Shown here: positions 6,569 through 60,130 of the stretch, piece after piece
Numbering within the stretch: the stretch's first letter is position 1
Layout: each line of letters opens with the position of its first letter
Source of the DNA: an uncultured delta proteobacterium
Lineage (GTDB): Bacteria > Chloroflexota > Dehalococcoidia > Dehalococcoidales > BS750m-G39
NCBI GenBank assembly: GCA_963739245.1
Contig: CAVTZP010000007.1
Coordinates: 187,723-251,722 of the forward strand
Direction of reading: 5' to 3'
Length of the DNA: 64,000 nt
Notes under the pieces: generated by a model
What the model was told of the DNA's origin: nothing
The model's database searches: none
What the model saw: the letters and a program-made list of their open reading frames with translations, nothing else
Program-made: the position numbers and the translations under genes

Positions 6569-6650
6569 GGAGTCCAAGAGGGGCTTTGCCCCCTCTAAAA
6601 ATAAATTCTTCCCCCTCCCTTATCAAGGGAAGGGGATAAAGGGGAAGGGT
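6569..6650 (-). repeat. bipartite palindromic repeat, copy R1 (B'-A' orientation)
   Basis: GGAGTCCAAGAGGGGCTTTGCCCCCTCT ... TTCCCCCTCCCTTATCAAGGGAAGGGGATAAAGGGGAAGGGT. Lies 33 nt after the stop of the 6086-6535 gene. Confidence 0.85.
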
Positions 6651-6674
6651 TTCCCCAGATATAAGGAGGCAAAA

Positions 6675-7157
6675 ATGGAAATTGACTGCTTAGCTTGCGG
6701 CAAACCTATCAAGATACCGGATTTTATTGACACCAATAATTACGATGGCCAGCTCACCTGCCCGGAGTGCGCCTCGCTGCTTCATGTGAGACTGGGCGGG
6801 GGTAAGGTAAGGAAATACGAGGTGGTGGAAAGAAAGTCACGCGGCGCAACTCTGGCCGACAGCGCGGTTAGCCACAAAACCGGAGGGGAAACGGCGGATG
6901 TAGCCAGCATTGCCAAATACAACCCGCTAAGGGACTTCCTGTCCAGCTATAGAGCCACCCAGATGCAGCTGGTCTTCGAGCAGATTGAAAGCATTATCGG
7001 CTCTGAGCTGGAAAAGGAGGCATATACCTTCAAATCCTGGTGGGAAAACGACGGCGGAAACCCCCAGGCTACTGCCTGGCTCGAAGCCGGATGGGAAGTG
7101 GTTGATGTTAGCCTTCCGCAGCGGAGAATCATCCTCAAACGGATTAAACAACTTTAA
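6675..7157 (+). CDS. zinc-ribbon protein with conserved C-terminal domain of unknown function
   Basis: CxxC-x20-CxxC at the N-terminus (CLAC...CPEC). The C-terminal part, KYNPLRDFL...LVFEQIESIIG...SWWEND...ATAWLEAGWEVVDV, is a widespread stand-alone domain pattern. GGAGG Shine-Dalgarno upstream. Confidence 0.5.
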   Translation: MEIDCLACGKPIKIPDFIDTNNYDGQLTCPECASLLHVRLGGGKVRKYEVVERKSRGATLADSAVSHKTGGETADVASIAKYNPLRDFLSSYRATQMQLVFEQIESIIGSELEKEAYTFKSWWENDGGNPQATAWLEAGWEVVDVSLPQRRIILKRIKQL

Positions 7158-7368
7158 AGTAAGTTGCTACTCCGGCCAGACCTACGCCGAAAGACCAAGG
7201 TCTTTTGTCTGGGAGGGGGTGAAATATGAGGTGGCGGAGATAGAAAAGGAGTGGCGGGAGCCGGGGGAGAGGCATTTTCAGGTCAGAACTAAGGATAACA
7301 AACGGTTCCAACTCTGCTATAATGAAACACAAGACCGGTGGTCGCTAACTGAGCTAATGAGGAGCTAA
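7105..7368 (+). CDS. small hypothetical protein (start uncertain)
   Basis: The distal part of track ORF 6985-7368 looks coding (CYSGQTYAERPRSFVWEGVKYEVAEIEKEWREPGERHFQVRTKDNKRFQLCYNETQDRWSL). The first in-frame ATG after most of the overlap is at 7105. This call still overlaps the preceding gene by about 50 nt. Confidence 0.35.
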   Translation: MLAFRSGESSSNGLNNFKVSCYSGQTYAERPRSFVWEGVKYEVAEIEKEWREPGERHFQVRTKDNKRFQLCYNETQDRWSLTELMRS

Positions 7369-7370
7369 AC

Positions 7371-7862: not shown

Positions 7863-9042
7863 ATGTCGCTAAAAGTGCGCAATATTAGCTCACAGCGAGC
7901 CAACCAGATTGCCCCTTCCGGGATAAGGAAGTTCTTTGACCTTCTCGCCTCTATGGAGGGGGTAATATCACTCGGAGTGGGCGAGCCTGATTTTGCTACT
8001 CCCGTGGCACATCCGCGAGGCGGCTATCTACTCGCTGGAGAAGGGCCAGACCATGTATACCTCAAACTCAGGCATGCCCGAGCTTCGCCGCGAGCTGTCA
8101 AGATACCTCAAGAACAGCTATAACCTGAGCTATGACCCCGATACTGAGCTTCTGATTACCGTTGGCGTCAGCGAGGCGCTAGACCTGGCCACCAGAGCCG
8201 TCCTTGACCCCGGTGATGAGGTCATCATGCCCGACCCCCACTATGTCTCCTATGACGCCTGCGTCATTCTGGCTGGTGGCACCCCAATTATGGTCCCCAC
8301 CAGCGAGGAAAATAATTTTGAGCTTAGCGCCGCTGATATTGAGGCGCGAGTTACCAGCAAGACCAAGGCCATTCTTATCGGCTATCCGTCAAACCCTACC
8401 GGGGCGGTGATGAGCAAAGAAAAGCTGGCAAAAATAGCCGAAATAGCCCGCCGCCACCAGCTGCTGGTAATCTCCGATGAGATTTACGCTCGGCTTGTCT
8501 ACGGCGTGAAGCACACCTGCTTTGCCACCCTGCCCGGGATGAAAGAAAGTACCGTTTTTCTCGGCGGCTTCTCCAAGGCTTATGCCATGACTGGCTGGCG
8601 CATCGGTTACGCCGCCGCCAGTAAAGAGATTATCGCCGCCATGACCAAGATTCACCAGTACACCATAATGTGTGCCCCGACCATGGCTCAGGTCGCCGCC
8701 ATTGAGGCGTTAAAATCCGGTGAACGCAGTGTGCTGGAAATGGTTGAGGACTACAATCGGCGGCGGCTGGTTATGGTCAAGGGACTACATGACATTGGCT
8801 TACCCTGCTTTGAACCCAAAGGCGCATTCTACGCCTTCCCCTCAATAAAGGGCACCGGCATGACCTCGGAGGAGTTTGCCGAAAAGCTGCTGGTGGAGGA
8901 AAAGGTCGCTGTCGTCCCCGGCACTGCCTTCGGGCAATGCGGTGAGGGCTATGTCCGCTGCTGCTATGCCACCTCTCTGGCGGAGATTGAGGAAGCGCTT
9001 CTGCGGATGGGGCGCTTCGTTAAGAAGCACAAGAAAGTATAG
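7863..9042 (+). pseudogene. class I/II (aspartate-type) aminotransferase, split by a 1-nt insertion in a C run
   Basis: Frame 1 reads ...APSGIRKFFDL...ISLGVGEPDFATP. The +1 frame continues WHIREAAIYSLEKGQTMYTSNSG... Removing one C from CCC at 8001-8003 restores GEPDFATPWHIREA. The PLP lysine motif GFSKAYAMTGWR is present. Confidence 0.85.
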
Positions 9043-9098: not shown

Positions 9099-9389
9099 AT
9101 GTTCAATATATTCCCTATAATACTCCTTCTTGGCTTTCTAGCCTTGTTTATTTATCTAGGTATACTAGTAAAAAGAAGAGGGTGGAAAACGATTAGCAAG
9201 ACCAGCAAGGTAGCAATATGCATCATAGCCTTCGGCCTCTTTGTGTTTCTGCTCACTCCACTACTGCTTGCCTTGTTCAATTTAGATAGCGATATAATAG
9301 GATTTCTTATAATGCTTGTTGGAGCCGCCGTCCTTCTCATAGGGTATGTTACTAACCATATAAGGAGAGGGAGGGAAAAGAGGAGGTAG
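9099..9389 (+). CDS. small membrane protein (3 TM), unknown function
   Basis: 96 aa, AT-rich, with a GGAG Shine-Dalgarno upstream. Hydrophobic helices and a basic C-terminus, RRGREKRR. Confidence 0.45.
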   Translation: MFNIFPIILLLGFLALFIYLGILVKRRGWKTISKTSKVAICIIAFGLFVFLLTPLLLALFNLDSDIIGFLIMLVGAAVLLIGYVTNHIRRGREKRR

Positions 9390-9398
9390 GTTTTTATG

Positions 9399-9483
9399 AA
9401 CCCCATCCCCTGTATCCCCTTCCCCTTAACAAGGGGAAGGGGAGGTTTGTTTTAAGAGGGGCTACCGCCCCTCTTTGACTGCC
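9399..9483 (+). repeat. bipartite palindromic repeat, copy R2 (A-B orientation)
   Basis: AACCCCATCCCCTGTATCCCCTTCCCCTTAACAAGGGGAAGGGGAGGTTTGTTTTAAGAGGGGCTACCGCCCCTCTTTGACTGCC. Lies between two convergent small membrane genes. Confidence 0.85.
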
Positions 9484-9513
9484 TGAATTTATACTCCAGA
9501 GGTAGACAGCAGG

Positions 9514-9975
9514 TTATTTTGGCTTTGCCGGTGCTGGGCGCCGCTGTTTTTTCCGCTCAAATAGCCACTTATAGTATAGAGCTGGAATAAGTAAAAACAA
9601 AATGAAACCAATGTAGAAAGCCGAAGTAACAAGCCAGTTTGATTGAAAATTCGAAACCAATGAACCAACTCCTTTTAAGTAGCCTATTATATACGTAAAC
9701 AAATAGATAATAAACAATGACCCGTGTAAGTTTTCAATAATAAAATCTTCGACATTATTAGACCAGTTTCCCCAAAATGCTGATATGACTAAAAGTAGAG
9801 ATACGACTCCAGCAATTCCTCCCAAAATCCAATAAACCATAGCAGGCATAGTTACAGTTGGCACATAATGTGCCCAATCGAAACCAACACTCCATCCACT
9901 CCCTTTTGGCATTCCAAGCAATATCATCGCAAATGAGAAAAGCAATACGCCCCAAGCTACAATACGTCTCGGCAT
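9514..9975 (-). CDS. membrane protein (4-5 TM), unknown function
   Basis: 153 aa, AT-rich, strongly hydrophobic, with a basic tail KKQRRPAPAKPK. Flanked by R2 and R3, which are in inverted orientation to each other. Confidence 0.45.
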   Translation of the reverse strand: MPRRIVAWGVLLFSFAMILLGMPKGSGWSVGFDWAHYVPTVTMPAMVYWILGGIAGVVSLLLVISAFWGNWSNNVEDFIIENLHGSLFIIYLFTYIIGYLKGVGSLVSNFQSNWLVTSAFYIGFILFLLIPALYYKWLFERKKQRRPAPAKPK

Positions 9976-10044
9976 TGGATAACCCTCCTTTTTTGCCCAA
10001 GTTTACAATAATAAATTAAGGCACTTCAATAGGAATAGAATAGA

Positions 10045-10126
10045 GGTGTCTAAGAGGGGCGAAAGCCCCTCTTCTTTTATTCCTCCCCCTCTCCTTCAAA
10101 GGAGAGGGGGATACAGGGGGTGAGGT
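10045..10126 (-). repeat. bipartite palindromic repeat, copy R3 (B'-A' orientation)
   Basis: GGTGTCTAAGAGGGGCGAAAGCCCCTCTTCTTTTATTCCTCCCCCTCTCCTTCAAAGGAGAGGGGGATACAGGGGGTGAGGT. Ends 4 nt from the trpS stop. Confidence 0.9.
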
Positions 10127-10130
10127 CAAC

Positions 10131-11105
10131 CTATAAAAGCCCCATCTTCTGCTTGACTTCTTTAAGTGTTTCCCTGGCAATCACGCTGGCGCGCTGGGCG
10201 CCGTCAGCCAGGACCTCCTTTATATACTCAGGTTTAGCGGCTAAGGCAGAGCGCCGCTGGCGCAGGGGGGCGAGGGCGGAGTTAATCTTCTCGGCGAGAA
10301 GCGTCTTGCACTCAACACAGCCAATCTTGGCCGAGCGGCACTGGATAGCAATGTCTGCCTGTTGCTCCGGGTTAAAATACCCGTGCAGGGTGTAAATATT
10401 GCATACCTCGGGGTGACCGGGGTCATTGCGGTACTGGCGGGCGGGGTCGGTAACCGCCGTCATCACCTTCTTTATTGTCTCCTCAGGCGAAAGGGCGATT
10501 TCAACATCATTGCCCAGTTGCTTGCTCATCTTCTCCTTGCCATCCAGCCCGAGCACCATTGGAAATGAGGTAAGCTTGGCTTGAGGCTCGGGGAAGGTAT
10601 CGCCGAAGAGGTTATTGAAGCGCCGGGCAATCTCCCGGGCCAGCTCCAGATGGGGAAGCTGGTCTTCGCCAACCGGCACCACCTCAGCCTTATAAAGCAC
10701 GATATCGGCGGTCATCAGCACCGGATAGCCCACCAGCCCGTAGTTCACATTCTGAGGCTGGAGCTTTACCTTCTCCTTGAAGGTAGGCACGCGCAGCAAC
10801 CAGCCCAGGGGGGTAACCATACTGAGCAGGGTATGTAGCTCCATTACCTCAGGGACATGGGACTGAACAAAGATGATGCTTTTCTTGGGGTCAAGCCCAG
10901 CCGCCAGCCAGTCGAGGGTCATCTCACGGATATTGCTCTGCAGGCTAGAGGTATCCTCCATTGTGGTCAGGGCATGGATATCAACAATGCAATAGACGCA
11001 ATCATACTCATCCTGCAGGCTGACATAGTTTTGTATTGCCCCGAGGTAATTCCCCAGGTGCTGCCGGCCGGTGGGGCGAGCCCCAGAAAAAACACGCTTC
11101 TTCAT
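10131..11105 (-). CDS. trpS: tryptophan--tRNA ligase
   Basis: 324 aa. HIGH-type motif PTGRQHLGNY and the KMSKS motif KMSKQ. Confidence 0.95.
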   Translation of the reverse strand: MKKRVFSGARPTGRQHLGNYLGAIQNYVSLQDEYDCVYCIVDIHALTTMEDTSSLQSNIREMTLDWLAAGLDPKKSIIFVQSHVPEVMELHTLLSMVTPLGWLLRVPTFKEKVKLQPQNVNYGLVGYPVLMTADIVLYKAEVVPVGEDQLPHLELAREIARRFNNLFGDTFPEPQAKLTSFPMVLGLDGKEKMSKQLGNDVEIALSPEETIKKVMTAVTDPARQYRNDPGHPEVCNIYTLHGYFNPEQQADIAIQCRSAKIGCVECKTLLAEKINSALAPLRQRRSALAAKPEYIKEVLADGAQRASVIARETLKEVKQKMGLL

Positions 11106-12779: not shown

Positions 12780-12845
12780 TAATTACTCCGCTGTAACCTT
12801 CAAATTATAGCACAAAGCTAGCTAAAGAATAACCCCACACCACAG

Positions 12846-14516
12846 CTAACCGCTACCCTTCCCTATCTGTTTCACCGCATTGTAGGTTACAATGCCACCA
12901 GAAATATTCCGGGCGTTAAACCCATTCAGACGCAGTATACGGGTAGCATAGTACGATCTCTGCCCTGTATGACAATAAACCCATATCTCCCCATTCCGGG
13001 GAAGCTCAGTCAACAGCGAACGAAGTTCCGGTAGCGGAATATTGACCGCCCCTTTCACTCTGTCGACAGCAACCTCCCCTAGAGTGCGAACGTCGAGAAT
13101 CATAGCCTTTGACTCAGTAATATCCTCCCAGTGGGCAATCGGGGCATCACCGCGCAAGGTGTTAGCCGCAACCATTCCCGCCAGATTGACCGGGTCTTTG
13201 GCAGCACCAAACTGTGGCGAGTAGCAAAGTTCGGCTTCCTCAAGGTCAAAGACAGTTGAATTTCGCTGAATGGCCATAGCAATGACATCAATCCGTTTCT
13301 CAACCCCTTCCTTACCAACCGCTTGAGCGCCAAGAACACGTCCGTCTTTTGTCGAGAAAATCAGCTTCAATGCCATAGATTCCGCACCCGGGTAATAGCT
13401 AACATGCTGGCTTGGATATAGATAAACCTTCTCATAAGGTATAGGCTTGCCACTAACGGCGGCGCGCCTTAGCCCTTTTTCACTAGCCCCAGTTGAGGCG
13501 ATAGTCATATTGAATACGCTACAAACGGCGGTGGCTTGAACACCACGGAATCTAACGTCACGCCCAAAGATAACGTCAGCAGCAATCCGTCCTTGCCGAT
13601 TAGCCGGGCCAGCAAGTGGCGCCAGAGTCCACTCACTGGTAATGAAATCTCGCGTCTCAACGGCGTCACCAACTGCCCAAATCCGCTCGTCACTGGTACG
13701 CATCTGGTCGTTAACGCGTATACCGCCGTAAGCCCCAATCTCAAGACCTGCCGCCTTAGCCAGGCTGACCTCGGGACGAACACCAAGGCTAAGAATAACA
13801 AGGTCGGCGGTATGAGTCTCACCGGACTTCAATCTGACAAGAATTGTTCCGTCGCTATTTTGTTCAAATCCAGTAACAGGCTCACCAAGGCAAAGACGCA
13901 CGCCATTGGCTAAGAGATGACCATGAATTGGCACCGCCATCTCAGGGTCAAGCATCGGCACAACCTGTGGCTCCATCTCAATAAGGGTTACCGAAACTCC
14001 ACGCTTGGCCAGGTTCTCGGTCATTTCCAATCCGATAAATCCACCACCAACGATAACCGCCTGCTTAACATTATGCTCCACAATCCATTCTTTAATCTGG
14101 CGGCTGTCGGGAATTGTCCGAAGACAAAAAATGCCAGGAATATCAATGCCTGGGAGTGACGGACGAATAGGCGTTGCCCCTGGTGCCAGCACCAAGGCAT
14201 CGTATCCTTCACGATATACTTTGCCTGTCTTCAAGTCCTTAACCTCGAGCTCATTCTTTTCACGGTCAATAGCCATGACTTCGTTCTCGGTTCGAACATC
14301 AATATTGAATCTCTTCTTCAAAAACTCAGGCGTTGCCAGAAGCAGCTCCTTCTCCTCGCTGATGACGTTGCCAATATAATAGGGCAGACCGCAGTTGGCA
14401 AAAGAGATGTAAGAGCCTCGTTCAAAGATGATAATCTCTGCCTCTTCCGAAAGCCGGCGCGCCCGAGTGGCACAAGAGGCGCCACCAGCCACCCCACCAA
14501 CGATAAGAATCCTCAT
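12846..14516 (-). CDS. CoA-disulfide reductase-type FAD oxidoreductase fused to a rhodanese domain
   Basis: Dinucleotide fold GGVAGGASCA, redox Cys motif SFANCGLPYY, a second NAD(P) fold VIVGGGFIGLE, and a C-terminal rhodanese loop VYCHTGQRS. Confidence 0.85.
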   Translation of the reverse strand: MRILIVGGVAGGASCATRARRLSEEAEIIIFERGSYISFANCGLPYYIGNVISEEKELLLATPEFLKKRFNIDVRTENEVMAIDREKNELEVKDLKTGKVYREGYDALVLAPGATPIRPSLPGIDIPGIFCLRTIPDSRQIKEWIVEHNVKQAVIVGGGFIGLEMTENLAKRGVSVTLIEMEPQVVPMLDPEMAVPIHGHLLANGVRLCLGEPVTGFEQNSDGTILVRLKSGETHTADLVILSLGVRPEVSLAKAAGLEIGAYGGIRVNDQMRTSDERIWAVGDAVETRDFITSEWTLAPLAGPANRQGRIAADVIFGRDVRFRGVQATAVCSVFNMTIASTGASEKGLRRAAVSGKPIPYEKVYLYPSQHVSYYPGAESMALKLIFSTKDGRVLGAQAVGKEGVEKRIDVIAMAIQRNSTVFDLEEAELCYSPQFGAAKDPVNLAGMVAANTLRGDAPIAHWEDITESKAMILDVRTLGEVAVDRVKGAVNIPLPELRSLLTELPRNGEIWVYCHTGQRSYYATRILRLNGFNARNISGGIVTYNAVKQIGKGSG

Positions 14517-14598
14517 AAACCTTACCCCCTTTAAGCACCAAGGCTTTTGTGGGCGGGTGGGTGGGAAGAAAAAGTATTGTTAAACACCTCTTCTCTCT

Positions 14599-14680
14599 AC
14601 CTCACCCCCTTAATCCCCCTCTCCTTCAAAGGAGAGGGGGAAGAGATTTTTTAAGAGAGGCTACGCCTCTCTTTGACTCC
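14599..14680 (+). repeat. bipartite palindromic repeat, copy R4 (A-B orientation)
   Basis: ACCTCACCCCCTTAATCCCCCTCTCCTTCAAAGGAGAGGGGGAAGAGATTTTTTAAGAGAGGCTACGCCTCTCTTTGACTCC. Confidence 0.9.
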
Positions 14681-14762
14681 TTATTAAAAACGAACTCGGC
14701 TCCCCACGTGGGGGAAAATCCGAACTTTTGCGGAGGTTTGTCTTTTCTAGACTGCTCAGAAT

Positions 14763-15524
14763 TCATGGTCTTATATCAAAAGAACGGATACCACTACTAT
14801 CTATGGTCAATGTAGTTATCTCACCGCCAATGGATGGCAAAAGAGTGCTCATACCATAAATCTGACTAATAATTCTGATCTGAAATCGAATATACTCAGC
14901 CCTGCCTTCTAAAGATGGTCGCGGAATGTTTATGTTACGCTGACGAAGGGTCGAGTTTAAAAGGCTCTCAAAATCTTCCCACCATGCAGCGTAAAAAGTG
15001 TAATCTCCATTCCTGACAATAAAGTAAGGGTTGTTTGGGTTATAACCACCCTGTGTAATGGCTCCGCCTAAATCGTAGTTAGCATTAAAAATATGTGTGT
15101 TGATATTTTGAAAGAACTGACTAGGGCCATTATGGATATGCCAGAAATCTGGCGCTAAGCGTCCGTTTTTAAGAACGAAGCCAGCTAGGTGAAATCCAGC
15201 TTCGGCTTGTCCTGACTGGGTTGGCGGTATAATTCTGTTTAGTTCGTCTTGAAGCAGTGTGGCAAACGCCTGTAAAGTTTGGCTCTGGCCTTGACACCTA
15301 GTAATGAACTCACTTAGCCATATATCGGTCTCAACGTTGCCTATTTGCCCGTATCCCCAACAAGAGGCACCAGCTTGAAGATAAGGAATTGGGAAAAGTT
15401 TCTGAACGCCCATCAGTACTCGGTTGCCAATTTGACCATTAGGTAATGGAGTCCGGCAAGTAACCGCGCTATCCGCCCCCATAACTATTCCGTATGACGA
15501 AATCTCTGTAAGTACTAAGGTCAT
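14763..15524 (-). CDS. orphan protein, candidate Thr1 N-terminal-nucleophile hydrolase (proteasome-beta/HslV-like)
   Basis: 253 aa. After Met removal the N-terminus TLVLTEISSYGIVMGADSAVT aligns position for position with HslV [21 protein letters not shown] (Thr1, Asp17, Thr21). A GVQKLFPI Lys follows, and SIGGEITTLTIDSSG near the C-terminus resembles the GSGG region. Fold assignment is unverified. Confidence 0.4.
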   Translation of the reverse strand: MTLVLTEISSYGIVMGADSAVTCRTPLPNGQIGNRVLMGVQKLFPIPYLQAGASCWGYGQIGNVETDIWLSEFITRCQGQSQTLQAFATLLQDELNRIIPPTQSGQAEAGFHLAGFVLKNGRLAPDFWHIHNGPSQFFQNINTHIFNANYDLGGAITQGGYNPNNPYFIVRNGDYTFYAAWWEDFESLLNSTLRQRNINIPRPSLEGRAEYIRFQIRIISQIYGMSTLLPSIGGEITTLTIDSSGIRSFDIRP

Positions 15525-15662
15525 CAGCTACCTCCAAAACTTAGAAATGACGAGTTCGGCTCATTTTGTATCTGCCCAGCTTAGAAAAGGATTCATCCCT
15601 AGCTCCACTCCGCTGCGCCGTGTTGCCAGACTCGGGCTAGCTCCTTAGCCAAGAGGCGGTGT

Positions 15663-18075
15663 TCAGGCTTCTCTAAAACTGGGGTCTTGTTCAAAGAGCC
15701 TTATTGCCTCGTCTCGTGCCAGCTCCAGCAGAGCCACATCAGAGAGCTTAGCCATGCGGAGGTCAGGAAGCCCGCTCTGCCGGGTGCCAAAGAACTCCCC
15801 CGGACCCCGCAGCCTCAGGTCCTCCTCAGCCAGTTGAAAGCCATCATAAATCTTCCCAATTATATCCAAGCGCTCCCTACCTACCTCGGAAGGGTTCTCC
15901 GCTAACAGCATGCAGTAGCTCTGCTCCTGCCCCCGCCCTACCCGGCCACGGAACTGGTGCAGTTGCGATAAGCCGAAACGGTCGGCGCTCTCCACCAGCA
16001 TCACCGTGGCATTGGGCACATCTATGCCCACCTCCACCACCGGGGTTGATACTAATATATTCAGTTCGCCGGAGCGAAAGCGGTGCATCGCCTCATCCTT
16101 CTCCGCCACCGACATCCGCCCGTGAATCAAGCCCAGCCTGAGGTCAGGAAAGACCTCCCGAGACAGGCGCTCATATTCCGCCACCGCCGCCTTAGCCTCA
16201 ATCGCCTCCGATTCCTCAATCAAGGGACAGATAATAAACGCCTGATGACCTTCAGCCACCTGACGGCGCAAAAAGTCATAGGCGCTATCCCGCTGCGATG
16301 GCTTGAGCCACTTGGTCTTCACCACCTGCCTCCCCGGAGGAAGTTCATCGATGACCGATAGGTCAAGGTCGCCATAGAGGGTCAAGGCCAGCGTTCGGGG
16401 GATAGGCGTTGCCGTCATTACCAGAACATGGGGGTTAAACCCCTTCTGCCTGAGCGCGGAACGCTGGGTAACCCCAAACCGGTGCTGCTCATCAACCACC
16501 GCCAAGCCCAATCGCTGGAACTCAACCTCCTTCTGAAAAAGGGCGTGAGTCCCGATAACAATATCTATATCTCCACTGGCGATAAGCTGCTGGATTTCCT
16601 GCTTCCGCGCCTGGTTTATGCCACCAATAAGTAGCGCCATAGTAAGCGGACGAGATAGAAGCCCGGAGTAACTACTCAGGTTATCTTCCCCCGCCACCTG
16701 CTCACCGGCTCTAGACAGGAGCTGGCAGAGGTTAGCAAAGTGCTGCTCAGCCAGAATCTCCGTCGGCGCCATGAATGCTCCCTGATAGCCACTGGCCGCC
16801 CCAACCAGCAGGGCGGCAGTAGCCACCACGGTCTTGCCACTGCCCACCTCCCCCTGCAACAATCGGGACATCGGTCTTGGCTTCTCCAGGTCAGCCAGTA
16901 TCTCACCGAGCACCCGGTGCTGAGCCGCCGTCAGCTTGAAGGGCAAAGAGCTTAAAAAGCTTATCCAGCACCGGTGTCTTGACCTCAAACGGGTTGCCCG
17001 GCTGGCTCTCCTGCCAATCGCGCTTTCTCGCCAGCACCCCCAATTGAAGAAGAAAAAGCTCGTCAAACGCCAGCCCGACCCTTGCCCGGTCCTTAGCGGC
17101 TTCATTCTCGGGAAAGTGAGCCTGGGCTATCGCCTGGGGCAGCTCAAGCAGGTTACAGCGTTGCCTCAGCTCGGTGGGCAAAAAGTCCTCTACCTGCCCT
17201 GCCCACTGGTCGACAACCTCTTTCATCAGTTTCCTCACCTGGCGGGGGTGCAACCCCTGGGTAAGGGGATAGAGAGGAACCAGGCGCCCGGTGTGAATCA
17301 GCTCCTTATCCTCCAATAGCTCCCACTCTGGAGATTCAAACACATGCCGCCCGCCAAATAAGCCCACCCGGCCGCTGAGAACCACCCGGGTATTAGTTGG
17401 TAGCTTCTTTGCCAGGTAAGGATTATTAAACCATACCACCCTGACATTGCCGGTCTCATCGCCGACAATAGCCTCGGTGCTGCGCCGGCCACCGGGCATA
17501 ATCACCTGAGCCTGCCACACGTTAGCAATAATCGTCTGCTCCTCTCCCTCGGTAAGCTGGGAGATATACTTCCTCTGGCTATAGTCAAGATGGCGGTGGG
17601 GGAAGAAATAGAGCAGGTCACGAATCGTTTCCACACCCAAACGTTTGAACTTAGCCGCCAGACTGGTGCTAACCCCCTTAAGAGTAGTAATGGGAGACTC
17701 AATAGACCCGCTGGCTACCCTACGCCCCTTTACCAAAGACTGCCTGCTGTCTACCGGAGGCGAGGGCACTGCGCCTTCTTCTGGCACCTTGACCTCACCC
17801 TTTTCAGTTTCAACTTTCTCCAGTTCAGACAGAAAAGCAAATATCTTATTTACCCACTCCTTGCGCTGCTCCCTGGTCAAAGAGGCATAGTTAGAATTAA
17901 TCAACCCAAGCCGATGAAACTGGCGCAAAAGCGGGGGGCTGGTTATTGACTCTACGGCTTGAGCGGTCCAGCGGTGAAGGAATCTATCCAAACCACCGAT
18001 TACCGCTGAATCCAGATAACCCTTCTCAACCTCAAGCCGGAGAATCTTCTGCAGAGGCTCAACATTTATTGGCAA
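15663..18075 (-). pseudogene. recG: ATP-dependent DNA helicase RecG, split by a 1-nt insertion in a homopolymer
   Basis: Track ORFs 16903-18075 (wedge/N-terminal part) and 15663-17105 (helicase core: GEVGSGKTVVA, DEQHRFG, QLHQFRGRVGRG) overlap in different frames. Deleting one base of the A5 run at 16954-16958 gives ...VLDKLLSSLPFKLTAAQHRVL... Confidence 0.9.
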
Positions 18076-18108: not shown

Positions 18109-18951
18109 TCAATCCCTGTCGCCTAATACAGATACCGCTAAAACGTGAGGGCCAACATGCACCCCCACTGCCGGACTCACCTTCGTCCGGTAGATACGCT
18201 CTTTGGGAAATTTAGTGTTGATACGCTCAGCCAACATCTCAGCCTCATTGGGAGTGGTGGCATCCTCTATCGCCATTTCTTCAATGCGGGAATAACCTAT
18301 AGCAAAGTTATATAGGTGTTCTATTGACTTGGCTCGAGAGCGCTCCCTGGCAACCGGATAAGTCTCGCCATCTTTTATACAGAGGATAGGATTTATCTTA
18401 AGCACTGACCCGAGAAATGCCTGCGCCTTACCAATGCGCCCACCCCTCTGAAGATATTCCAAGGTATCAAAAGCGATGCGGATATCAGCTCGAGGTATAT
18501 TCTTCTGCGTCAAAGCCGCCACCTCATCGAAACTAGCTCCGGCCTGAGCCGCCTTAGCCGCAGCCATAACTATAAGTCCCTCGGCCATAAGGGCCCATTG
18601 CGAATCAATCACCTCTATCCGGCATTTCCGCTTCATCAGTTCTACAGCTTGCAACGCTGTCTTATAGATAGCACTCAACTTGTGGGAAATAGTAATGACC
18701 AGGATTTCGTCCGTCTCTTTAGCCAGCTTATCATACGCCTCGGCAAAGATTGTCGGTGCCGGCACTGCCGTAGTTGGCAGGATTTTGCTACTGACTAACC
18801 TCTCGTAGAACTGCTCAGTAGTCAGGTCAATACCATCGCGATAAGTTTTAGCGCCAAAGCAAACATACGCCGGAACTACGGTAATACCTAATTCTTCAAC
18901 CGATTTGACAGGAAGGCAAGCCGAGCTATCAGTAACAATCTTAACTGCCAT
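18109..18951 (-). CDS. DegV-family fatty-acid-binding protein (FakB-type), paralog 1
   Basis: 280 aa. IVTDS start and the DegV pattern ...TSxPSP/AP...LEYLxRGGRIG. Confidence 0.85.
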   Translation of the reverse strand: MAVKIVTDSSACLPVKSVEELGITVVPAYVCFGAKTYRDGIDLTTEQFYERLVSSKILPTTAVPAPTIFAEAYDKLAKETDEILVITISHKLSAIYKTALQAVELMKRKCRIEVIDSQWALMAEGLIVMAAAKAAQAGASFDEVAALTQKNIPRADIRIAFDTLEYLQRGGRIGKAQAFLGSVLKINPILCIKDGETYPVARERSRAKSIEHLYNFAIGYSRIEEMAIEDATTPNEAEMLAERINTKFPKERIYRTKVSPAVGVHVGPHVLAVSVLGDRD

Positions 18952-18977
18952 TTAAAAGCCTTTGCCCCTTATTACTG

Positions 18978-19820
18978 CTACCCCTTGTCCCCCAATATAG
19001 CGACCAGCAGGAGACCGGGGCCAGTATGAGTCCCGATTGCTGGGGTCATCTTTGAGCGATAGATTCGTTCCTTTGGAAACTTAGTGCTAAGCCGCTCAAC
19101 CAGTGCCTCAGCGTCATCAGGACAGGCGGTATCCTCCACCGCCATCTCCTCTATGCGGGAAAAGCTAGTAGCAAAGTTATATAAATGCTCCATCGCCTTC
19201 GCCCGAGAGCGTGTCCTGCCTACCGGCTCAACCAGGCCGTCTTTCAGGGTGATGATAGGGTTTATCCTCAGTATTGACCCCAGAAAAGCCTGTGCCCGGC
19301 CAATCCGCCCACCCCTCCTGAGGTACTCCAGGGTATCAAAAGCAGCCCGAAAATCCACACGAGGAATAGTCTTTCTAATTAGCTCTATCACCTTACCAAG
19401 ACTAGCTCCGGCCTGAGCCGCTCTAGCCGCAGCCATAACTATAAACCCCTGCGCCATAGTCGCCCACCGTGAATCAATCACTTCCACCCGGCATTTCCGT
19501 TTCATCAGTGCGACGCTTTGTAACGCCACCTCATAGGTACCACTGAGCCGGGAAGAAACAATAATAGCCAGAATCTCATCTGTCTCCTCAGCCAGCTTAT
19601 CATAGGCCTCGGCAAAGGTTGCTGGTGATGGTACTGAAGTAACCGGAAAGATCTTGCTGCGGGTGAGCATGTTGTAGAACTCGCTGGCAGTCAGGTCAAT
19701 GCCATCACGGTAGAGCCTTTCGCCAAAGCGGACAAGTAACGGAATCACCGTAATCCCCAGCTCTTTAACCACCTGAGACGGCAAATCAGCGATGCTATCG
19801 GTAACAATCCTAACTGTCAT
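18978..19820 (-). CDS. DegV-family fatty-acid-binding protein (FakB-type), paralog 2
   Basis: 280 aa. Colinear with paralogs 1 and 3 and roughly two-thirds identical to them by eye. Confidence 0.85.
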   Translation of the reverse strand: MTVRIVTDSIADLPSQVVKELGITVIPLLVRFGERLYRDGIDLTASEFYNMLTRSKIFPVTSVPSPATFAEAYDKLAEETDEILAIIVSSRLSGTYEVALQSVALMKRKCRVEVIDSRWATMAQGFIVMAAARAAQAGASLGKVIELIRKTIPRVDFRAAFDTLEYLRRGGRIGRAQAFLGSILRINPIITLKDGLVEPVGRTRSRAKAMEHLYNFATSFSRIEEMAVEDTACPDDAEALVERLSTKFPKERIYRSKMTPAIGTHTGPGLLLVAILGDKG

Positions 19821-25846: not shown

Positions 25847-25932
25847 ACCTCTCCCCCTGTATCCCCCTCTCCTTTCTAAGGAGAGGGGGAAAGTAGTTTT
25901 TTGAGAGAGGCTCCGCCTCTCTCTGACTCTCC
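25847..25932 (+). repeat. bipartite palindromic repeat, copy R5 (A-B), intercistronic between argD and argG
   Basis: ACCTCTCCCCCTGTATCCCCCTCTCCTTTCTAAGGAGAGGGGGAAAGTAGTTTTTTGAGAGAGGCTCCGCCTCTCTCTGACTCTCC. Ends 1 nt from the argD stop. Confidence 0.9.
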
Positions 25933-25933
25933 C

Positions 25934-27147: not shown

Positions 27148-27179
27148 TCAAGAGAGGCTTCGCCTCTCTTTGACTCTCC
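27148..27179 (+). repeat. solo B module of the repeat family, copy R6, between argB and argD
   Basis: TCAAGAGAGGCTTCGCCTCTCTTTGACTCTCC. No A module adjacent. Confidence 0.75.
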
Positions 27180-30346: not shown

Positions 30347-30410
30347 ACCTCACCCCCTTAATCCCCCTCTCCTTAGGGAATTGGTGAAGGAGAGGGGGAA
30401 TTTGTTTTTT
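30347..30410 (+). repeat. solo A module of the repeat family, copy R7, with an enlarged loop
   Basis: ACCTCACCCCCTTAATCCCCCTCTCCTTAGGGAATTGGTGAAGGAGAGGGGGAATTTGTTTTTT. The 3' end of ORF 30373-31119 is translated through it (..SPSPSPIP*). Confidence 0.8.
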
Positions 30411-49128: not shown

Positions 49129-49790
49129 ATGAGACTGATAAAAAATCTATACTTCTACCCCGAAAAGGGAATGATGGACTGCAATACCTATGTGATTAAG
49201 GATAAAACCAGCATCATCATAGACCCCGGTCTTACCCAATTCCTGCCGGAGCTAATACAGGATTTGTACAAGGAAGGCATTGACCCTAAAGAGATAGATA
49301 TTATCGCTAATACCCACCTGCACGGTGACCACTGCTGGTCAAATGAGGCATTCAGGAAAATCTCCGGAGCTAAAATACTTCTCCACCCGTCGCAAAAGAA
49401 TTCCTGGGAGGAACGGTTACCCAGACGTCAAGATTCTTTGGTGTCCCCGCCGTGGAGTTCACCCAAGATGAATTACTTGAGGGTGACAAGCTAAATACCG
49501 GGGAGATGGAATTTGAGCTCATCCCCTCCCCGGGACATTCCCCGGACAGCATCTGCTTCTACTGCAAAAAGGAGAAAATCTTGATTTGCGGAGACGTCCT
49601 CTTCAACCAGAATACCGGGCGGGTTGACCTGCCCGGCGGCAGTGCCGAGGCACTTAAGCAGTCTATAGAGAGGCTATCACAGCTAGAAATAGAGTACCTG
49701 CTTCCCGGACATATGGACATCATAGTCGGCGAGGAAAAGGTGAAGCGCAACTTTGAATTCATCAAGAAATACGTGTTTGGCCACCTGTAA
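49129..49790 (+). pseudogene. MBL-fold hydrolase split by an apparent 1-nt deletion
   Basis: Track ORFs 49129-49494 (THLHGDHCWSN) and 49452-49790 (SPGHSPDS, CGDVLF, LPGH) overlap in different frames. Adding a C to the CCC run at 49386-49388 gives the continuous reading ..ILLHPVAKEFLGGTVTQTSRFFGVPAVEFTQDELL.. Confidence 0.8.
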
Positions 49791-52144: not shown

Positions 52145-52224
52145 ATATCCTCCTTTCTACACATTTGGCATAAAATATACACCTTTTAGTCACTCTTGTC
52201 AATAGGGACACCCCAACTTAAGTG

Positions 52225-52380
52225 GGTGTCTAAGAGGGACGCCAGCCCCTCTTTTATAAAATCTTCCCCCTCCTGGAGAAATTTCTAAGTCCTAATATCT
52301 AAACTCTAACAGGCACGAATTGCGTTGTTTAGTATTTCGGATTTCGTGCTTTGAGTTTCTAATGTTAGGGGGTGAGGTAG
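52225..52380 (-). repeat. bipartite palindromic repeat, copy R9 (B'-A'), with the A hairpin interrupted
   Basis: An intact B' (GGTGTCTAAGAGGGACGCCAGCCCCTCTT) and the left A arm (TCTTCCCCCTCC) are followed by about 90 nt of unrelated AT-rich sequence. Then comes the terminal flank TAGGGGGTGAGGTAG at 52366-52380. Confidence 0.65.
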
Positions 52381-53172: not shown

Positions 53173-54447
53173 TTACGGGCGCACCTGCCCGCTACCAAAG
53201 ATAATCCACTTATAGCTGGTTAGCTCCCTCAACCCTAGCGGACCGCGGGCATGAAACTTCTGGGTACTGATGCCGACCTCAGCCCCCAGGCCAAACTGAC
53301 CACCATCGGTGAAACGGGTGCTGGCATTGACATAGACGCAGGCGGCATCCACCTCATCAAGGAAGCGCATGGCGGCACCATATTCCTCAGTGACAATCGC
53401 CTCAGAGTGCCCCGAGCCATAGCGCTCAATATGCTCAAGCGCCTCATCCAGAGAGTCCACCACCTTGACCGCCGCCACCAGCGCCAGAAACTCCTTGCCC
53501 CAATCCCCATCAGTAGCTGGCGCCAGCTTCAAAGAAGGGTCTGACTTAAGGATAGCCATCGCCCGCTTATCACAGTGCATCTCCACCCCCGCCTTCGCCC
53601 ACTCCACTGCCACCAGGGGGAGATAGCGCTGGGCAATATCGGCATGAACCAGAAGGCAGTCCAGGGCGTTACAAACGGTGGGGCGCTGCACCTTGGCATT
53701 AAAGGCAATAGCCACCGCCTTATTCACATCAGCGCTCTTGTCCACATAGGTATGGCAAACACCAATGCCACCGGTTACCACCGCCATAGCGGCATTTTCC
53801 GCGACAAACCTTATCAGCTCAGCACCACCCCGGGGAACAATCAGGTCAATAAACTCCCTCATCTTGAGCATGTGATTGACCAGGGCTCGGTCAGTATTCT
53901 CAACAAACTGAACCGCCCCCTCGGGGACGCCGGCTCTGGTTGCCGCCTCCTGAACTACCTTAGCTAAGGCACTATTGGAGTGAATTGCCTCCCTGCCCCC
54001 CCTTAAGATAACGGCGTTGCCCGACTTCAGGCAGAGGACAGAGATATCGACACTAACATTGGGTCGGCTCTCATAGACAGCGCCAACCACCCCCAGCGGC
54101 ACCCTTTTCCTGCCGAGCAACAAGCCATTGGGCAGGGTGCGCATATCAAACACCTCGCCCACCGGGTCAGGGAGTGCCGCCACTGCCAGCACATCCCTGG
54201 CTATAGCCTCAAGACGGCTGGAGTCAAGCATCAGCCTATCCAGCATGGCGGCGTTCATCCCTGAGGCATGAGCCTCATGGTAGTCAATCTGGTTAGCCGC
54301 CAGTATTTCGTCCTTCTTAGCCAGAAGGTCACTGGCAATATTATGTAAAGCCTTATTTTTGACCTCGGTAGAGAGGTAAGCCATGCGCCGGGAAGCCGCC
54401 TTCGCCGCCCTAGCTTTTGCTTCTAGCTCGCCAGTTGCTGATTTCAT
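53173..54447 (-). CDS. proA: glutamate-5-semialdehyde dehydrogenase (gamma-glutamyl phosphate reductase)
   Basis: Aldehyde-dehydrogenase fold with the CNALDCLLVH active site. I place the start at ATG 54447 (MKSATGELEAK...). The track's extra 56 N-terminal codons are translation of repeat copy R10. Confidence 0.9.
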   Translation of the reverse strand: MKSATGELEAKARAAKAASRRMAYLSTEVKNKALHNIASDLLAKKDEILAANQIDYHEAHASGMNAAMLDRLMLDSSRLEAIARDVLAVAALPDPVGEVFDMRTLPNGLLLGRKRVPLGVVGAVYESRPNVSVDISVLCLKSGNAVILRGGREAIHSNSALAKVVQEAATRAGVPEGAVQFVENTDRALVNHMLKMREFIDLIVPRGGAELIRFVAENAAMAVVTGGIGVCHTYVDKSADVNKAVAIAFNAKVQRPTVCNALDCLLVHADIAQRYLPLVAVEWAKAGVEMHCDKRAMAILKSDPSLKLAPATDGDWGKEFLALVAAVKVVDSLDEALEHIERYGSGHSEAIVTEEYGAAMRFLDEVDAACVYVNASTRFTDGGQFGLGAEVGISTQKFHARGPLGLRELTSYKWIIFGSGQVRP

Positions 54448-54454
54448 TTTATTA

Positions 54455-54575
54455 ATCTCACCCCCTGTATCCCCCTCTCCTTGAGAAGGAGAGGGGGGAA
54501 GGTATTGTTTAGAGGGACTTCGTCCCTCTTGGACTCCCTTGAATTTATTTGGGCTTCGCCCCTCTTGGACTCTCC
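54455..54575 (+). repeat. repeat family copy R10: A module plus B module plus an extra half B module
   Basis: ATCTCACCCCCTGTATCCCCCTCTCCTTGAGAAGGAGAGGGGGG ... TTTAGAGGGACTTCGTCCCTCTTGGACTCC ... GGGCTTCGCCCCTCTTGGACTCTCC. It fills the gap between the small ORF and proA. Confidence 0.85.
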
Positions 54576-59100: not shown

Positions 59101-59405
59101 TGGACAAGATAGAGCAGGTAGAAGAAATGGCTAAGGAATTCAGCGACCGCTTTGGCTCTCTGCCCATAGAGGTAAAAAACCTGCTCTACGCGGTCAGGGT
59201 CAAGATTCTGGCGGCAAAGGCCGGCATTGAATCCATCTCCACTGAAGACGGTCAAATAATACTTCGGCTATTTGAGGGTGTGAAATTCACCCCGGAGCAA
59301 CGGGCGCTCAGCTTCCCCGATGGCGTTAGAATGGGCACAAGCCAGATAGGGCTAAACCTGAAACGGCTGGGGAAGGAGTGGCAGAGGGTATGGAGGGGGT
59401 GTTAA
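56118..59405 (+). CDS. mfd: transcription-repair coupling factor
   Basis: About 1095 aa. Has a UvrB-homology N-terminus, an RNAP-interaction domain (GDYVVHVEHGIGRF), and an SF2 helicase core (CGDVGYGKTEVALRAAF, DEEQRFGV, QLRGRVGRG). ATG 56118 is preferred over the track's TTG at 56106. Confidence 0.95.
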   Translation: MDLTKLLNLIAEMPAYHQLLDELRRNASTEVSVLEAAKPYLIAALFQSVRLPMVVVTAQPEKSRRLYEQLLAWSNSSQLKLLPEPDALPYERIASDASTEQERVQVLSALANISGETNAPLIVASAPAVMQKTTPYSDFISAGHILKPGMDIEPFELLGKWQAMGYRMENIVEMPGTMSHRGGIIDVYPPTSDLPARLEFFGNTIESIRTFDPASQRSLTPVSSMAIGPATERLTPLKDSILNYLPPACLLVLDEPQNIKQAVDELDAQASELRAEKLERGELPANFPRPYLNWKELEPEIREKPCLMLTAWAVGEEDSSHRLNFTVAPSYAGQLPAFVNKVKQLLKQKQRLIIVSHQASRLSELLGQEDIIASPVTELEQIPPPGSLTLVQGLLAEGWVMDNHTTLFTDAEVFGFIKQRRLIKRRAVPHHRFVIEFAPGDYVVHVEHGIGRFAGVTRMSTEDSEKEYLVLGYGAGDKLYVPTDQIDRVNRYIGASDHPPVLNRLGTQEWTRTKQRAKEAAEDVAQELLALYATREVVPGFAFSGDSVWQQELEASFPYVETPDQIKVQGEVKGDMEKAKPMDRLVCGDVGYGKTEVALRAAFKAVMDGKQVAVLVPTTVLAQQHFATFSQRLDAFPVRIEVLSRFKTPKEQQAILKGLSDGSVDICIGTHRLLQKDVVFKNMGLLIIDEEQRFGVAHKEHLKKLRQEVDALTLSATPIPRTLHMSLVGVRDMSTMETPPEQRLPIKTYVAEYNERLIREAILREMERNGQVFFVHNRVQGIAFITGKLRELVPEAKIAIAHGQMPEAELEKVMADFARGKSDVLVCTTIIESGLDMPNVNTLIINRADKFGLTQLYQLRGRVGRGANLAYAYFLYDHGKRLTPNAEKRLKTIFEATELGAGFGIAMKDLEIRGAGTLLGPRQSGHITAVGFNLYTRLLAEAVEELKAKQAGIAVTKPSHLPPPTLDLPLRAYIPEEYVADIDTRLSLYQSLVKLDKIEQVEEMAKEFSDRFGSLPIEVKNLLYAVRVKILAAKAGIESISTEDGQIILRLFEGVKFTPEQRALSFPDGVRMGTSQIGLNLKRLGKEWQRVWRGC

Positions 59406-59416
59406 AGGGGGTGGGG

Positions 59417-60052
59417 CAAAATATAGCATTGATATAATAATTTAAATGGTGTTAGAATAGCAAGAATTAATGTTTCCGGAGCTATTTTAGAATGACTGTA
59501 GACACGAAAGCAGTTGTTAGGTATTGCCTAGCACAGCTCTAAATGAACTTGGAATTTTCAGTTATACGGTTTATACTTAACCTATCAGCAGCCAAGATAG
59601 GAAAGGAGTGAGAGTGCATTTCATCTGTACACTCCCAGTGGAAGCTAGGGGATTAAAATAGTGGTCTGTCTTTTCTGTTGATGAGCAAAACTGTAGTGCC
59701 ATAACCTTTTCGGCGACTTGAAGGGTTATAGAAGATCTAACAATGGGTGATTCGGACGTCATTTGAAAGTGCGTTGGCTGGGATGCCAGTCTTACCACCT
59801 AAAGACTACAATCGCTTTTATATACAGGGACTCTTTAGCGATTGTGTCTGGACTTTTGGCATAGAAACTCCTATCTCGTTTGAGCAGATTCTATCAGAAA
59901 AACAAAGAATGCCCTAGCCACGATGCAAGAGCTAATCTTAGAGATAGATAGTTATCGCAATTACACTGCCTCAACAAAAGACTAGATAAGTGAGATAGCA
60001 AGTATTTAACTCTAAGGTTTTTCCTAGTTCTCAAAGTCAAACAAGTAATCAA
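59417..60052. other. AT-rich non-coding stretch of about 640 bp between convergent genes
   Basis: Stops are frequent in all six frames; the only listed ORF is a 73-codon one that looks spurious. The stretch is visibly AT-richer than its flanks. Local hairpins include CAATCGCT/AGCGATTG (59809-59844) and GGAGTG/CACTCC (59604-59634). Confidence 0.5.
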
Positions 60053-60130
60053 GCAGTCTAAGAGGGGCGAAAGCCCCTCTTCTCAAAATTCTTCCCCTTC
60101 CCAAGGGGAAGGGGATACAGGGGATGGGGT
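60053..60130 (-). repeat. bipartite palindromic repeat, copy R11 (B'-A' orientation)
   Basis: GCAGTCTAAGAGGGGCGAAAGCCCCTCTTCTCAAAATTCTTCCCCTTCCCAAGGGGAAGGGGATACAGGGGATGGGGT. Ends 11 nt from the corrected acpP stop. Confidence 0.9.

Follow-up and report, generated by a model that had tools for sequence, protein, structure and literature searches.

A dispersed bipartite repeat, probably of the intrastrand-triplex-motif kind, between the genes of a Dehalococcoidales-like bacterium

What is the business of a short piece of DNA that encodes nothing, belongs to no known RNA family and recurs between the genes of a bacterial chromosome about once every 6 kb? The question is raised by a sequence of 64,000 nt from an uncultured bacterium (hereafter the window; coordinates are positions of this whole stretch), whose ArgS is 82-90% identical to many metagenomic proteins, two of them labelled as from Dehalococcoidales metagenome-assembled genomes (MAGs). 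A first-pass annotation had described eleven loci that share a composite of two hairpins, module A and module B, each with a flanking motif, and had likened it to repetitive extragenic palindromes (REPs) and their mosaics (bacterial interspersed mosaic elements, BIMEs) or to MITEs (miniature transposable elements with inverted repeats). Here we argue that the element, a bipartite and non-coding DNA repeat in dispersed copies, is probably of the intrastrand-triplex-motif kind, its carrier being a Dehalococcoidales-like bacterium to judge from 84%-identical ArgS proteins that bear that name and from the taxonomy of the MAGs in which the repeat occurs.

Read directly, all eleven intervals bear the modules ascribed to them, at a density (11 in 64 kb), in orientations of both kinds and in solo as well as composite forms that agree with the earlier description, and every copy in the window is intergenic. 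The 12-mer of the module A arm, CCCCCTCTCCTT, occurs 29 times with up to two mismatches against 10.5 +/- 2.7 in shuffled sequence (none of 100 shuffles reaches 29), the module B hairpin pattern occurs three times where none is expected, and a repeat finder recovers the families independently (D4-D9, D11, D13 and D15, with inverted pairs I1-I25). An unfiltered search of the window with a covariance model trained on 40 copies picks out eight complete A+B composites (70-99 bits, E 1e-16 to 1e-24), together with a solo A at 30347 (58 bits), a solo B at 27148 and a disrupted copy at 52218-52380; it finds no further full copy in the window, and besides the eleven loci only two weak relics, 14519-14573 and 59390-59417, which the list of eleven had missed. 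The limits first drawn hold, except that copy 8 reaches about 34731 and copy 7 may keep a degenerate module B to 30443. Folded as single-stranded DNA under a nearest-neighbour model with no Hoogsteen terms, the eight composites form exactly two hairpins each, of -17 to -25 kcal/mol, and leave the flanks unpaired; z-scores run from -3.9 to -6.9 for seven of them and stand at -1.7 for that at 6569-6650. An assembly artefact is ruled out by the presence of the family in independent JGI, ENA and NCBI assemblies. The element has no coding capacity, a small open reading frame (ORF) in copy 2 (ATG at 9396) being rejected because other copies have ATC or ATT there, and Rfam returned no match at the gathering threshold over the whole window and only chance-level ones (E >= 0.027) over 9300-10200.

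The hairpins are thus real, but what had been taken for mere flanks is more than that: ACCTCACCCCC before hairpin A and GAC(T/A)CC after hairpin B each repeat the neighbouring pyrimidine arm in mirror image and covary with both arms, and each module therefore comprises a third strand, a pyrimidine arm and a purine arm, a row of three homopurine or homopyrimidine blocks along a single strand. Copy 4, the exemplar (plus strand, 99 bits, -22.5 kcal/mol, z -6.0), is laid out as follows.

14599-14680, plus strand: composite of modules A and B (model span 14599-14688)
14599-14609: third strand of module A (ACCTCACCCCC)
14610-14614: linker
14615-14626: pyrimidine arm of module A
14627-14628: loop
14629-14640: purine arm of module A
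14641-14652: A/T spacer
14653-14661: purine arm of module B
14662-14664: loop
14665-14673: pyrimidine arm of module B
14674-14676: linker
14677-14680: third strand of module B

On the G-rich strand (reverse complement of 14599-14641) the module A of this copy reads TCCCCCTCTCCTT-TG-AAGGAGAGGGGGA-TTA-AGGGGGTGAGGTA. In general terms, module A on that strand consists of a pyrimidine arm CCCCCTCTCCTT, a loop of 2-4 nt, a purine arm AAGGAGAGGGGG, a linker of 3-5 nt and a third strand GGGGGTGAGGT (class II), and module B on the same strand of a third strand GGAG(A)G, a linker TCA, a purine arm AAGAGGGGC, a loop and a pyrimidine arm (class I). From 5' to 3' the G-rich strand of a composite is third B, purine B, pyrimidine B, A/T spacer, pyrimidine A, purine A, third A, and both third strands therefore lie outermost, on one strand. 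We surveyed every pyrimidine-arm hairpin in 0.98 Mb of collected sequence and inspected the block preceding it. Taken outward, the upstream block of module A is the mirror image of the arm taken inward, and variants of the one match variants of the other across seven or more haplotypes:

flank (outward) C5-A-CTCC with arm (inward) C5-T-CTCC
flank C4-TA-CCCC with arm C4-TT-CCCC
flank C5-TA-(T/C)CC with arm C5-TT-CCC
flank C5-T-CCC-AA with arm C5-T-CCC-TT
flank C4-TCTCCC with arm C4-TCTCCC
flank C4-TA-CTCC with arm C4-TT-CTCC
flank C5-T-CCCC with arm C5-T-CCCC

Inverted duplication cannot have been the origin of such a mirror repeat. Module B is built alike at its 3' side, where the third strand covaries with its arm in combinations of arm, linker and flank such as these:

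GCCTCTC-TTTGA-CTCTCC
GCCCCTC-TTAAA-CACCCC
GTCCCTC-TTGGA-CTCCCT
GCCCCTTC-AAA-CTTCCCC

Nature has also supplied a compensatory set across all three blocks (CCCCTTCCCC / GGGGAAGGGG / GGGGATGGGG). An alignment of 130 copies from the window and related genomes bears out the paired stem changes already suspected from the window, with 94.5% of cells paired and 197 double-side changes against 53 in shuffles (0 of 500 reach it), figures to be read in the knowledge that the covariance model which aligned the copies embodies the very pairing under test. The third block changes in step with the other two: among distinct sequences, flank 7 / Y21 / R38 reads C,C,G 47 times and T,T,A 15 times, and flank 4 / Y24 / R35 reads T,T,A 44 times and C,C,G 19 times, with few exceptions at either. 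Treated as parallel pairs, flank and purine arm are complementary in 95.6% of cases against 87.2% in shuffles (0 of 500 reach it), and their covariation score drops once the register is slid.

Expressed as triads, 66 distinct A modules have a mean of 10.36 canonical triads out of 11; permuting flanks among the modules gives a mean of 9.58 and a maximum of 10.02 (0 of 5000 permutations reach 10.36), and shifting the register of the A flank leaves 5.7-6.3. For module B the mean is 6.26 against 5.91 with permuted flanks (maximum 6.04) and 4.99 with letter-shuffled ones. The commonest A variant has a canonical purine-motif triad (G.G-C, A.A-T or T.A-T) at every position, and the recurrent 'A where T is expected' of its flank is, on the G-rich strand, a T opposite A-T, which the purine motif permits. 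Within the window, nine intact A modules score 13/13 (three times), 12/12, 12/13, 11/12 (twice), 11/11 and 8/8 on the G-rich strand, and the opposite side of the same hairpins yields at most 8/13. Set against the ITxF criteria of Holder et al. (2015), namely a triad stem of 6-15, no more than one mismatch and loops of 1-6 nt, the three-block arrangement is present in all nine intact A modules and in module B, and module A falls within the limits of length and mismatch with loops of 2-5 nt, save in copy 7, whose first loop has 12 nt. The full set of copies in the window is as follows.

Copy 1, 6561-6651, minus strand: A+B composite, 77 bits; 11/11 triads in A (a single stem mismatch), B run of 6; in the gap between a Bles03-like gene and a DUF7662 gene, immediately 5' of the Shine-Dalgarno sequence of the latter
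Copy 2, 9399-9490, plus strand: A+B composite of the CCCCTTCCCC subfamily, 88 bits; A 13/13 triads; between convergent genes
Copy 3, 10037-10126, minus strand: A+B composite, 93 bits; A 12/13 triads; begins 4 nt past the stop codon of a trpS-like (tRNA-synt_1b) gene
Copy 4, 14599-14680, plus strand: the exemplar above; A 13/13 canonical triads on the minus strand, longest B run 5
Copy 5, 25847-25938, plus strand: A+B composite, 86 bits; A 13/13 triads, B run of 7; occupies the argD-argG intercistronic gap, with GGAGA at both junctions
Copy 6, 27148-27179, plus strand: solo module B (repeat family D7), run of 7 triads; between argB and argD
Copy 7, 30347-30443, plus strand: solo module A with a 12-nt loop, 58 bits; 11/12 triads; a T tract and possibly a degenerate B on the 3' side
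Copy 8, 34649-34737, plus strand: A+B composite, 77 bits; A 12/12 triads, B run of 6
Copy 9, 52218-52380, minus strand: module B with a disrupted module A that retains pyrimidine arm and third strand, its purine arm swapped for an insert of about 95 nt unique among all collected sequences
Copy 10, 54455-54575, plus strand: A + B + half-B (composite 54455-54545, 88 bits); A 11/12 triads; between proB and proA
Copy 11, 60045-60130, minus strand: A+B composite of the CCCCTTCCCC subfamily, 71 bits; shortened hairpin A, 8/8 triads
Relic or variant, 14519-14573, plus strand: 16 bits; A-type third strand ACCTTACCCCC joined to a block of G-quadruplex pattern, GGGCGGGTGGGTGGG
Relic, 59390-59417, plus strand: 13.6 bits, family D15; purine mirror repeat GGAGGGGGTG-TTAAA-GGGGGTGGGG at the 3' end of mfd, with purine arm and third strand present and pyrimidine arm gone

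Is such an architecture new? BoxC, PIT and TM repeats (Bachellier; Hoyne and Maher 2000) go back to the 1990s, and no function has been assigned to them. Three names for one E. coli repeat, BoxC, PIT and TM_ECO share the consensus CCCTCNCCC N3-6 GGGNGAGGG N3 GGGNGAGGG; the repeat is intergenic, is unconnected with transposons, phages or plasmids, acts neither as promoter nor as terminator in E. coli, often occurs in pairs of type A and type B in inverted configuration and is statistically linked to rearranged loci among E. coli strains, and its isolated strand folds into a stable triplex in vitro (Holder et al. 2015, PMC4666352). That consensus has no match in the window, and we are therefore dealing with a different sequence family of the same architecture: the earlier remark that the element belongs to no named family holds for the sequence, but not for the kind, which was already on record in the same paper. 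In a literature search the literal sequences brought up nothing but unrelated primers and sites in eukaryotes. Like BoxC/PIT/TM_ECO, the present family sets pyrimidine arm, purine arm and mirror-repeat third strand consecutively on one strand, is G/C-rich and strictly intergenic with conserved stems, variable loops and no associated transposase, and comes alone or in tight pairs of two types at loci of variable gene content. Unlike TM_ECO, it has stems of 12-13 rather than 9, a host among the Chloroflexota rather than the Proteobacteria or Cyanobacteria, a mild orientation bias relative to genes, and copies on contigs labelled viral, whereas TM_ECO was not found on mobile elements; moreover, it pairs a class I with a class II module in mirror arrangement, both third strands being borne by one strand, where the E. 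coli pairs are inverted and use opposite strands. Holder et al. reported no covariation analysis and did not mention Chloroflexi, and the comparative evidence goes beyond the E. coli motif because TM_ECO is too uniform, while the subfamilies here change all three blocks together. The family also resembles the mirror repeats of H-DNA in having a homopyrimidine mirror repeat with a short spacer (CCTCACCCCC - 5 nt - CCCCCTCTCC), with the difference that the complementary purine arm is on the same strand too, and a triplex is therefore possible from one strand, without unpairing half a duplex.

How such a repeat comes and goes can be read from six related loci (L117-L122) syntenic with the window, seven genomes in all, whose roughly 20 full copies in 123 kb amount to a density like that of the window. 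The site of copy 3, after the stop codon of the trpS-like gene, holds a full or partial copy in all seven genomes, and that of copy 2, after the aminotransferase gene, has orthologues in four of the six related loci (L117, L118, L120 and L122; five genomes with the window); each site keeps its own subfamily across genomes, and both sites are old. Over five genomes apiece, the structured blocks at these two old sites are 90% and 97% identical and the loops, linkers and spacer 52% and 67%, so that all three blocks are under a constraint from which loops and spacers are free. L117 and L122 lack copy 1, the one upstream of the DUF7662 gene, and L117 and L119 lack copy 5 (argD-argG), these copies being young or else lost elsewhere. 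Where the two sites are filled they have GGAG at both junctions, and where empty a single GGAG, the Shine-Dalgarno sequence of the downstream gene; the pair could be a 4-bp duplication or target, or could arise by microhomology with the GGAG that starts the B end.

Gain and loss of this sort invite the thought that the element is a MITE, mobilised in trans by a transposase encoded elsewhere, with hairpins and flanks serving as recognition sites. Presence/absence polymorphism at orthologous sites, paired GGAG around two lineage-specific insertions against a single one in empty sites, distinct subfamilies and the occurrence of the same sequences in several phyla and on 21 contigs labelled viral all speak for it, and in its length (80-120 bp), non-coding nature, insertion polymorphism between relatives and subfamilies the element is like the bacterial MITEs Correia/NEMIS, ERIC, Nezha and Chunjie. 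It departs from them in its bipartite form without terminal inverted repeats, in having no consistent target-site duplication and in the lack of an identified parent insertion sequence. The ends of the composite, ACCTCACCCCC... and ...GACTCC, are both pyrimidine mirror blocks of the same strand, without complementarity to each other; among older copies no target duplication recurs consistently; and since GGAG itself belongs to the conserved B end, what looks like a duplication may be microhomology. No transposase or RAYT (the REP-associated tnpA-REP gene), Y1 transposases included, occurs among the 57 window ORFs scanned for protein families, as first noted, no match to the element was found by BLASTN in 72,556 plasmids, and no transposase has been found for TM_ECO either. 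We consider a MITE decidedly unlikely.

Outside the window, a scan of one genome per species with a pattern made of the A flank and the first seven arm bases found at least 116 loci. Among the matches listed, most are from Dehalococcoidia, Dehalococcoidales or other Chloroflexota MAGs and have the same A+B composite; others listed are from Runella, Rhabdobacter, Ignavibacteria, Chlorobiaceae, Desulfobacterota-type MAGs, Zixibacteria, WOR-3 and others, in which the form is a nested palindrome of outer arm, inner hairpin and inverted outer arm and does carry complementary outer arms. The 21 viral-labelled contigs (IMG/VR; L123-L143) match the same pattern, about 15 of them with the full A+B composite, often directly upstream of a gene start (AGATATG...). 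Module A also has long-loop variants with 40-90 nt between the arms (L019, L029, L077, L089, L091, L094 and L111; also L042, L043, L074 and L107), of which several inserts start CCAA(C/T)CAG and those of Ignavibacteria/Chlorobi type hold another widespread palindrome, GTCCTGAGTGAAGTCGAAGGA. As an autonomous parent element the long-loop variants were rejected, for the inserts measure only 40-150 nt and contain no ORF, and the 95-nt insert of copy 9 is unique.

Could the element act instead as RNA? Of 96 placeable copies, 56 lie between co-directional genes, 17 between convergent and 17 between divergent ones, and 6 inside ORF calls; in the co-directional contexts the direction of the C-rich flank is antisense in 36 and sense in 20, a bias that fits selection against hairpin A plus T-rich spacer on mRNA. 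In a REP/BIME-like RNA element the hairpins would block 3'-5' exonucleases or terminate transcription and so set the stability of cistrons, the flanks having no structural role. The hairpins are certainly strong (their folding energies are given above) and are the top-scoring terminator-like sites in each segment, and three window copies lie within the arg and pro operons (argB-argD, argD-argG and proB-proA); REPs sit inside the malEFG operon likewise. With the REPs and BIMEs of Enterobacteria and Pseudomonas the family further shares short G+C-rich intergenic palindromes in high copy number, some of them terminator-like, and a mosaic of modules (A+B, A alone, B alone, G-quadruplex block + B, A+B'+inverted A). 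To this extent the BIME half of the earlier comparison survives. REPs proper, however, are imperfect palindromes, 20-40 nt long, that bear GTAG as a conserved 5' motif and go with a RAYT gene, and here there is no GTAG beside either hairpin in the eleven loci and no RAYT was found among the 57 window ORFs, while the arms are strictly homopurine or homopyrimidine and are joined by an extra, covarying mirror block; the MITE half of the comparison fails on the ends described above.

Nor is termination a likely common task. Six element hairpins conform to a simple terminator rule, only two of them in the sense of the upstream gene and four with the T tract antisense, and by an intrinsic terminator criterion on the sense strand two of the eleven loci qualify (9415-9443 on the plus strand and 34722-34701 on the minus strand). 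The first, hairpin A of copy 2 followed by GGTTTGTTTT downstream of the aminotransferase gene, has kept its T tract in all five orthologues and to judge from the sequence is probably a real terminator; the second is hairpin B of copy 8 followed by TTTTTAATTTT. A general terminator role is ruled out by the two sense hairpins in six and by the spread over divergent, convergent and co-directional contexts. The conserved T tract of copy 2 favours a REP/BIME-like RNA element, but the mirror-sense covariation of unpaired flanks with the stems is left unexplained by it, as are the 17 copies between divergent genes and the four antisense hairpins in six, and PIT elements have neither terminator nor promoter activity in E. 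coli. On balance we regard it as unlikely, though worth keeping in view.

A triple helix might also be made of RNA, if a transcript of the C-rich strand laid its pyrimidine flank in the major groove of its hairpin (C+.G-C and U.A-U triads; classes III/IV) and so protected or regulated an mRNA. Pyrimidine-motif intrastrand triplexes can form in RNA, and purine-motif ones are not known to (PMC4666352); the C-rich strand, for its part, has the correct block order in both modules. Against this, a co-directional mRNA more often carries the G-rich strand, by 36 to 20 overall and at seven of eight co-directional loci in the window by manual tally (four of five composites in a computed placement), C+-rich triads require protonation, and the A of the commonest flank opposite T-A is a mismatch in the pyrimidine motif and canonical (T.A-T) on the G-rich DNA strand. 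An RNA triplex thus seems very improbable.

We return to an intrastrand triplex of DNA as the favoured account. The G-rich strand would become single-stranded during replication, in a transcription bubble or under supercoiling stress, whereupon the hairpin would form and the third block would fold back antiparallel to the purine arm to give G.G-C, A.A-T and T.A-T triads; we infer that a triplex formed in this way in vivo is what selection acts on. Having no transposase of its own, the element may spread and be lost through microhomology at GGAG-like Shine-Dalgarno sequences, would be tolerated only between genes and, inside operons, mostly in the orientation that keeps hairpin plus T tract off the mRNA strand. 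A few copies may have acquired local roles, as sense terminators (9415-9443 and 34701-34722) or possibly as the ribosome-binding site of proA and of the gene at 14516, and copies would mark hypervariable junctions, as TM_ECO does. The joint changes of blocks and their conservation amid decay of loops and spacer argue for constraint on all three blocks, and the class would be extended to Chloroflexota, to a bipartite mirror arrangement, to contigs labelled viral and to mosaics with a G-quadruplex-type repeat.

Several points weigh against this account. Most of the double stem changes fall into two or three subfamilies, so that independent events are few; the covariation as a whole rests on a handful of subfamilies, and the shuffle controls take no account of kinship among copies. 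A degenerate direct repeat (CCCCCTGTAT vs CCCCCTCTCC) would also yield part of the mirror signal through equal C-run lengths, and gene conversion between copies, and not selection, could be what keeps the blocks alike at orthologous sites. The third strand of module B is short, with longest runs of 7, 7, 7, 6, 6, 6, 5, 5, 3 and 3, so that six of ten copies fall within the ITxF limits and four lie below the 6-triad threshold. The orientation bias (36 to 20) is weak. For TM_ECO itself, no triplex signal was seen in duplex DNA, and probing in vivo with dimethyl sulphate (DMS) was negative (PMC4666352).

As to the local roles, the third strand GGGGGTGAGAT of copy 10 lies on the minus strand 7 nt before a candidate ATG of proA at 54447 (54447-54465), and at 14514-14535 a G-rich third strand, GGGGGTAAGGT, stands upstream of the likely start (14516) of a coenzyme A (CoA)-disulfide reductase gene; the spacing is 3-7 nt across the two, and from its position the third strand appears to supply the Shine-Dalgarno sequence of both. 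Several genes on IMG/VR contigs start 4 nt after the same G-rich block, and a role as ribosome-binding site for several viral-contig genes is plausible. As a general function, a portable ribosome-binding site (GGGGGTGAGGT resembles GGAGGTGA) was rejected: an ORF of 60 aa or longer begins within 15 nt of 25 of 194 A ends (13%), a rate no higher than the 15% of random positions.

What, finally, of the company that the elements keep? Among the seven syntenic genomes they border three junctions with genome-specific cargo:

window 9490-10037, between the trpS-like gene (tRNA-synt_1b) and the aminotransferase gene (Aminotran_1_2): cargo that differs in every genome but for one shared ORF, and includes DndB, a Hypoth_Ymh protein and SnoaL
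window 6065-6675, between gatA and the DUF7662 gene: Bles03, SIR2 (SIR2_2) plus ParE, a methyltransferase-Mrr fusion, or nothing
window 12780-15663, between recG and argS

Other cargo across the three slots comprises an arylsulfotransferase, a radical SAM protein plus HicB, and the CoA-disulfide reductase. Conserved junctions nearby have no element. The association with variable gene slots parallels, by comparison, that of TM_ECO in an unrelated phylum; permissive intergenic space could equally gather both cargo and repeats.

There is also a second dispersed repeat, with four G3 tracts that fit a G-quadruplex / i-motif sequence pattern and the consensus TTTTTCTT-CCCACCCACCCGCCC-ACAAAAGCC...AAAGGGGGTAAGGT. 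It often adjoins the triplex element and forms mosaics with module B, and in L121 a block of this family, CCCACCCNCCCACCC, has replaced hairpin A at both old sites. Its copies are these:

window: one copy, 14519-14573, with the C-rich block CCCACCCACCCGCCC on the minus strand at 14551-14565
L117: 9402, 9458, 19340 and 21165
L118: 9910
L119: 9893
L120: 9573, 20755, 21019 and 21198
L121: 13331 and 13993
L122: 2737

A more speculative reading starts from the three-way covariation and from the two L121 sites, where a block of G-quadruplex pattern stands in for the triplex hairpin: the conserved trait at these intergenic positions would be the capacity for non-B DNA rather than any one sequence, and the elements would be a functional punctuation of the chromosome, making the hypervariable slots that they bracket by way of transient triplexes or G-quadruplexes on the displaced strand and of replication stalling or recombination. 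If this were true, the elements would create slots for defence-type and accessory genes (trpS/aminotransferase, gatA/DUF7662 and recG/argS); we think it quite improbable. A promoter-like sequence, TTGTCCTTCACAGTTAGCTTTGTGCTATAATC, is conserved upstream of argS, right after the G-quadruplex-type repeat (L119 9940-9990, L118 9945-9990, L122 2790-2830 and L120 9735-9770), and in the window the CoA-disulfide reductase gene separates that repeat from argS.

The window is otherwise an ordinary bacterial chromosome, with gatA, aminotransferase, trpS-like, argS, recG, yloV, rpe, argH-argG-argD-argB-argJ, mutS, gltA-like, gmk, pit/phoU, comEA/comEC, rph, proA-proB, mfd, nusB and fab genes, three degV paralogues and no tRNAs. 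For annotation, the family explains recurrent spurious proline/glycine-rich small ORFs and false terminator calls. Possible frameshifts occur at 15663-18075 (recG), 7863-9042 (aminotransferase), 49129-49790 (metallo-beta-lactamase fold) and 60877-62608 (fabG/fabD-like), genes that are single ORFs in relatives and in the window are split into overlapping ORFs or start well inside the Pfam profile, which suggests assembly indel errors or pseudogenes; indel errors are relevant because they could affect the C4/C5 run lengths in the repeats, though not the T/C substitutions that define subfamilies. The three degV paralogues lie in tandem at 18109-20659 with 69-78% DNA identity (repeat families D1-D3), and the relatives have three such genes in L120 and L121 and one in L117, L118 and L119.

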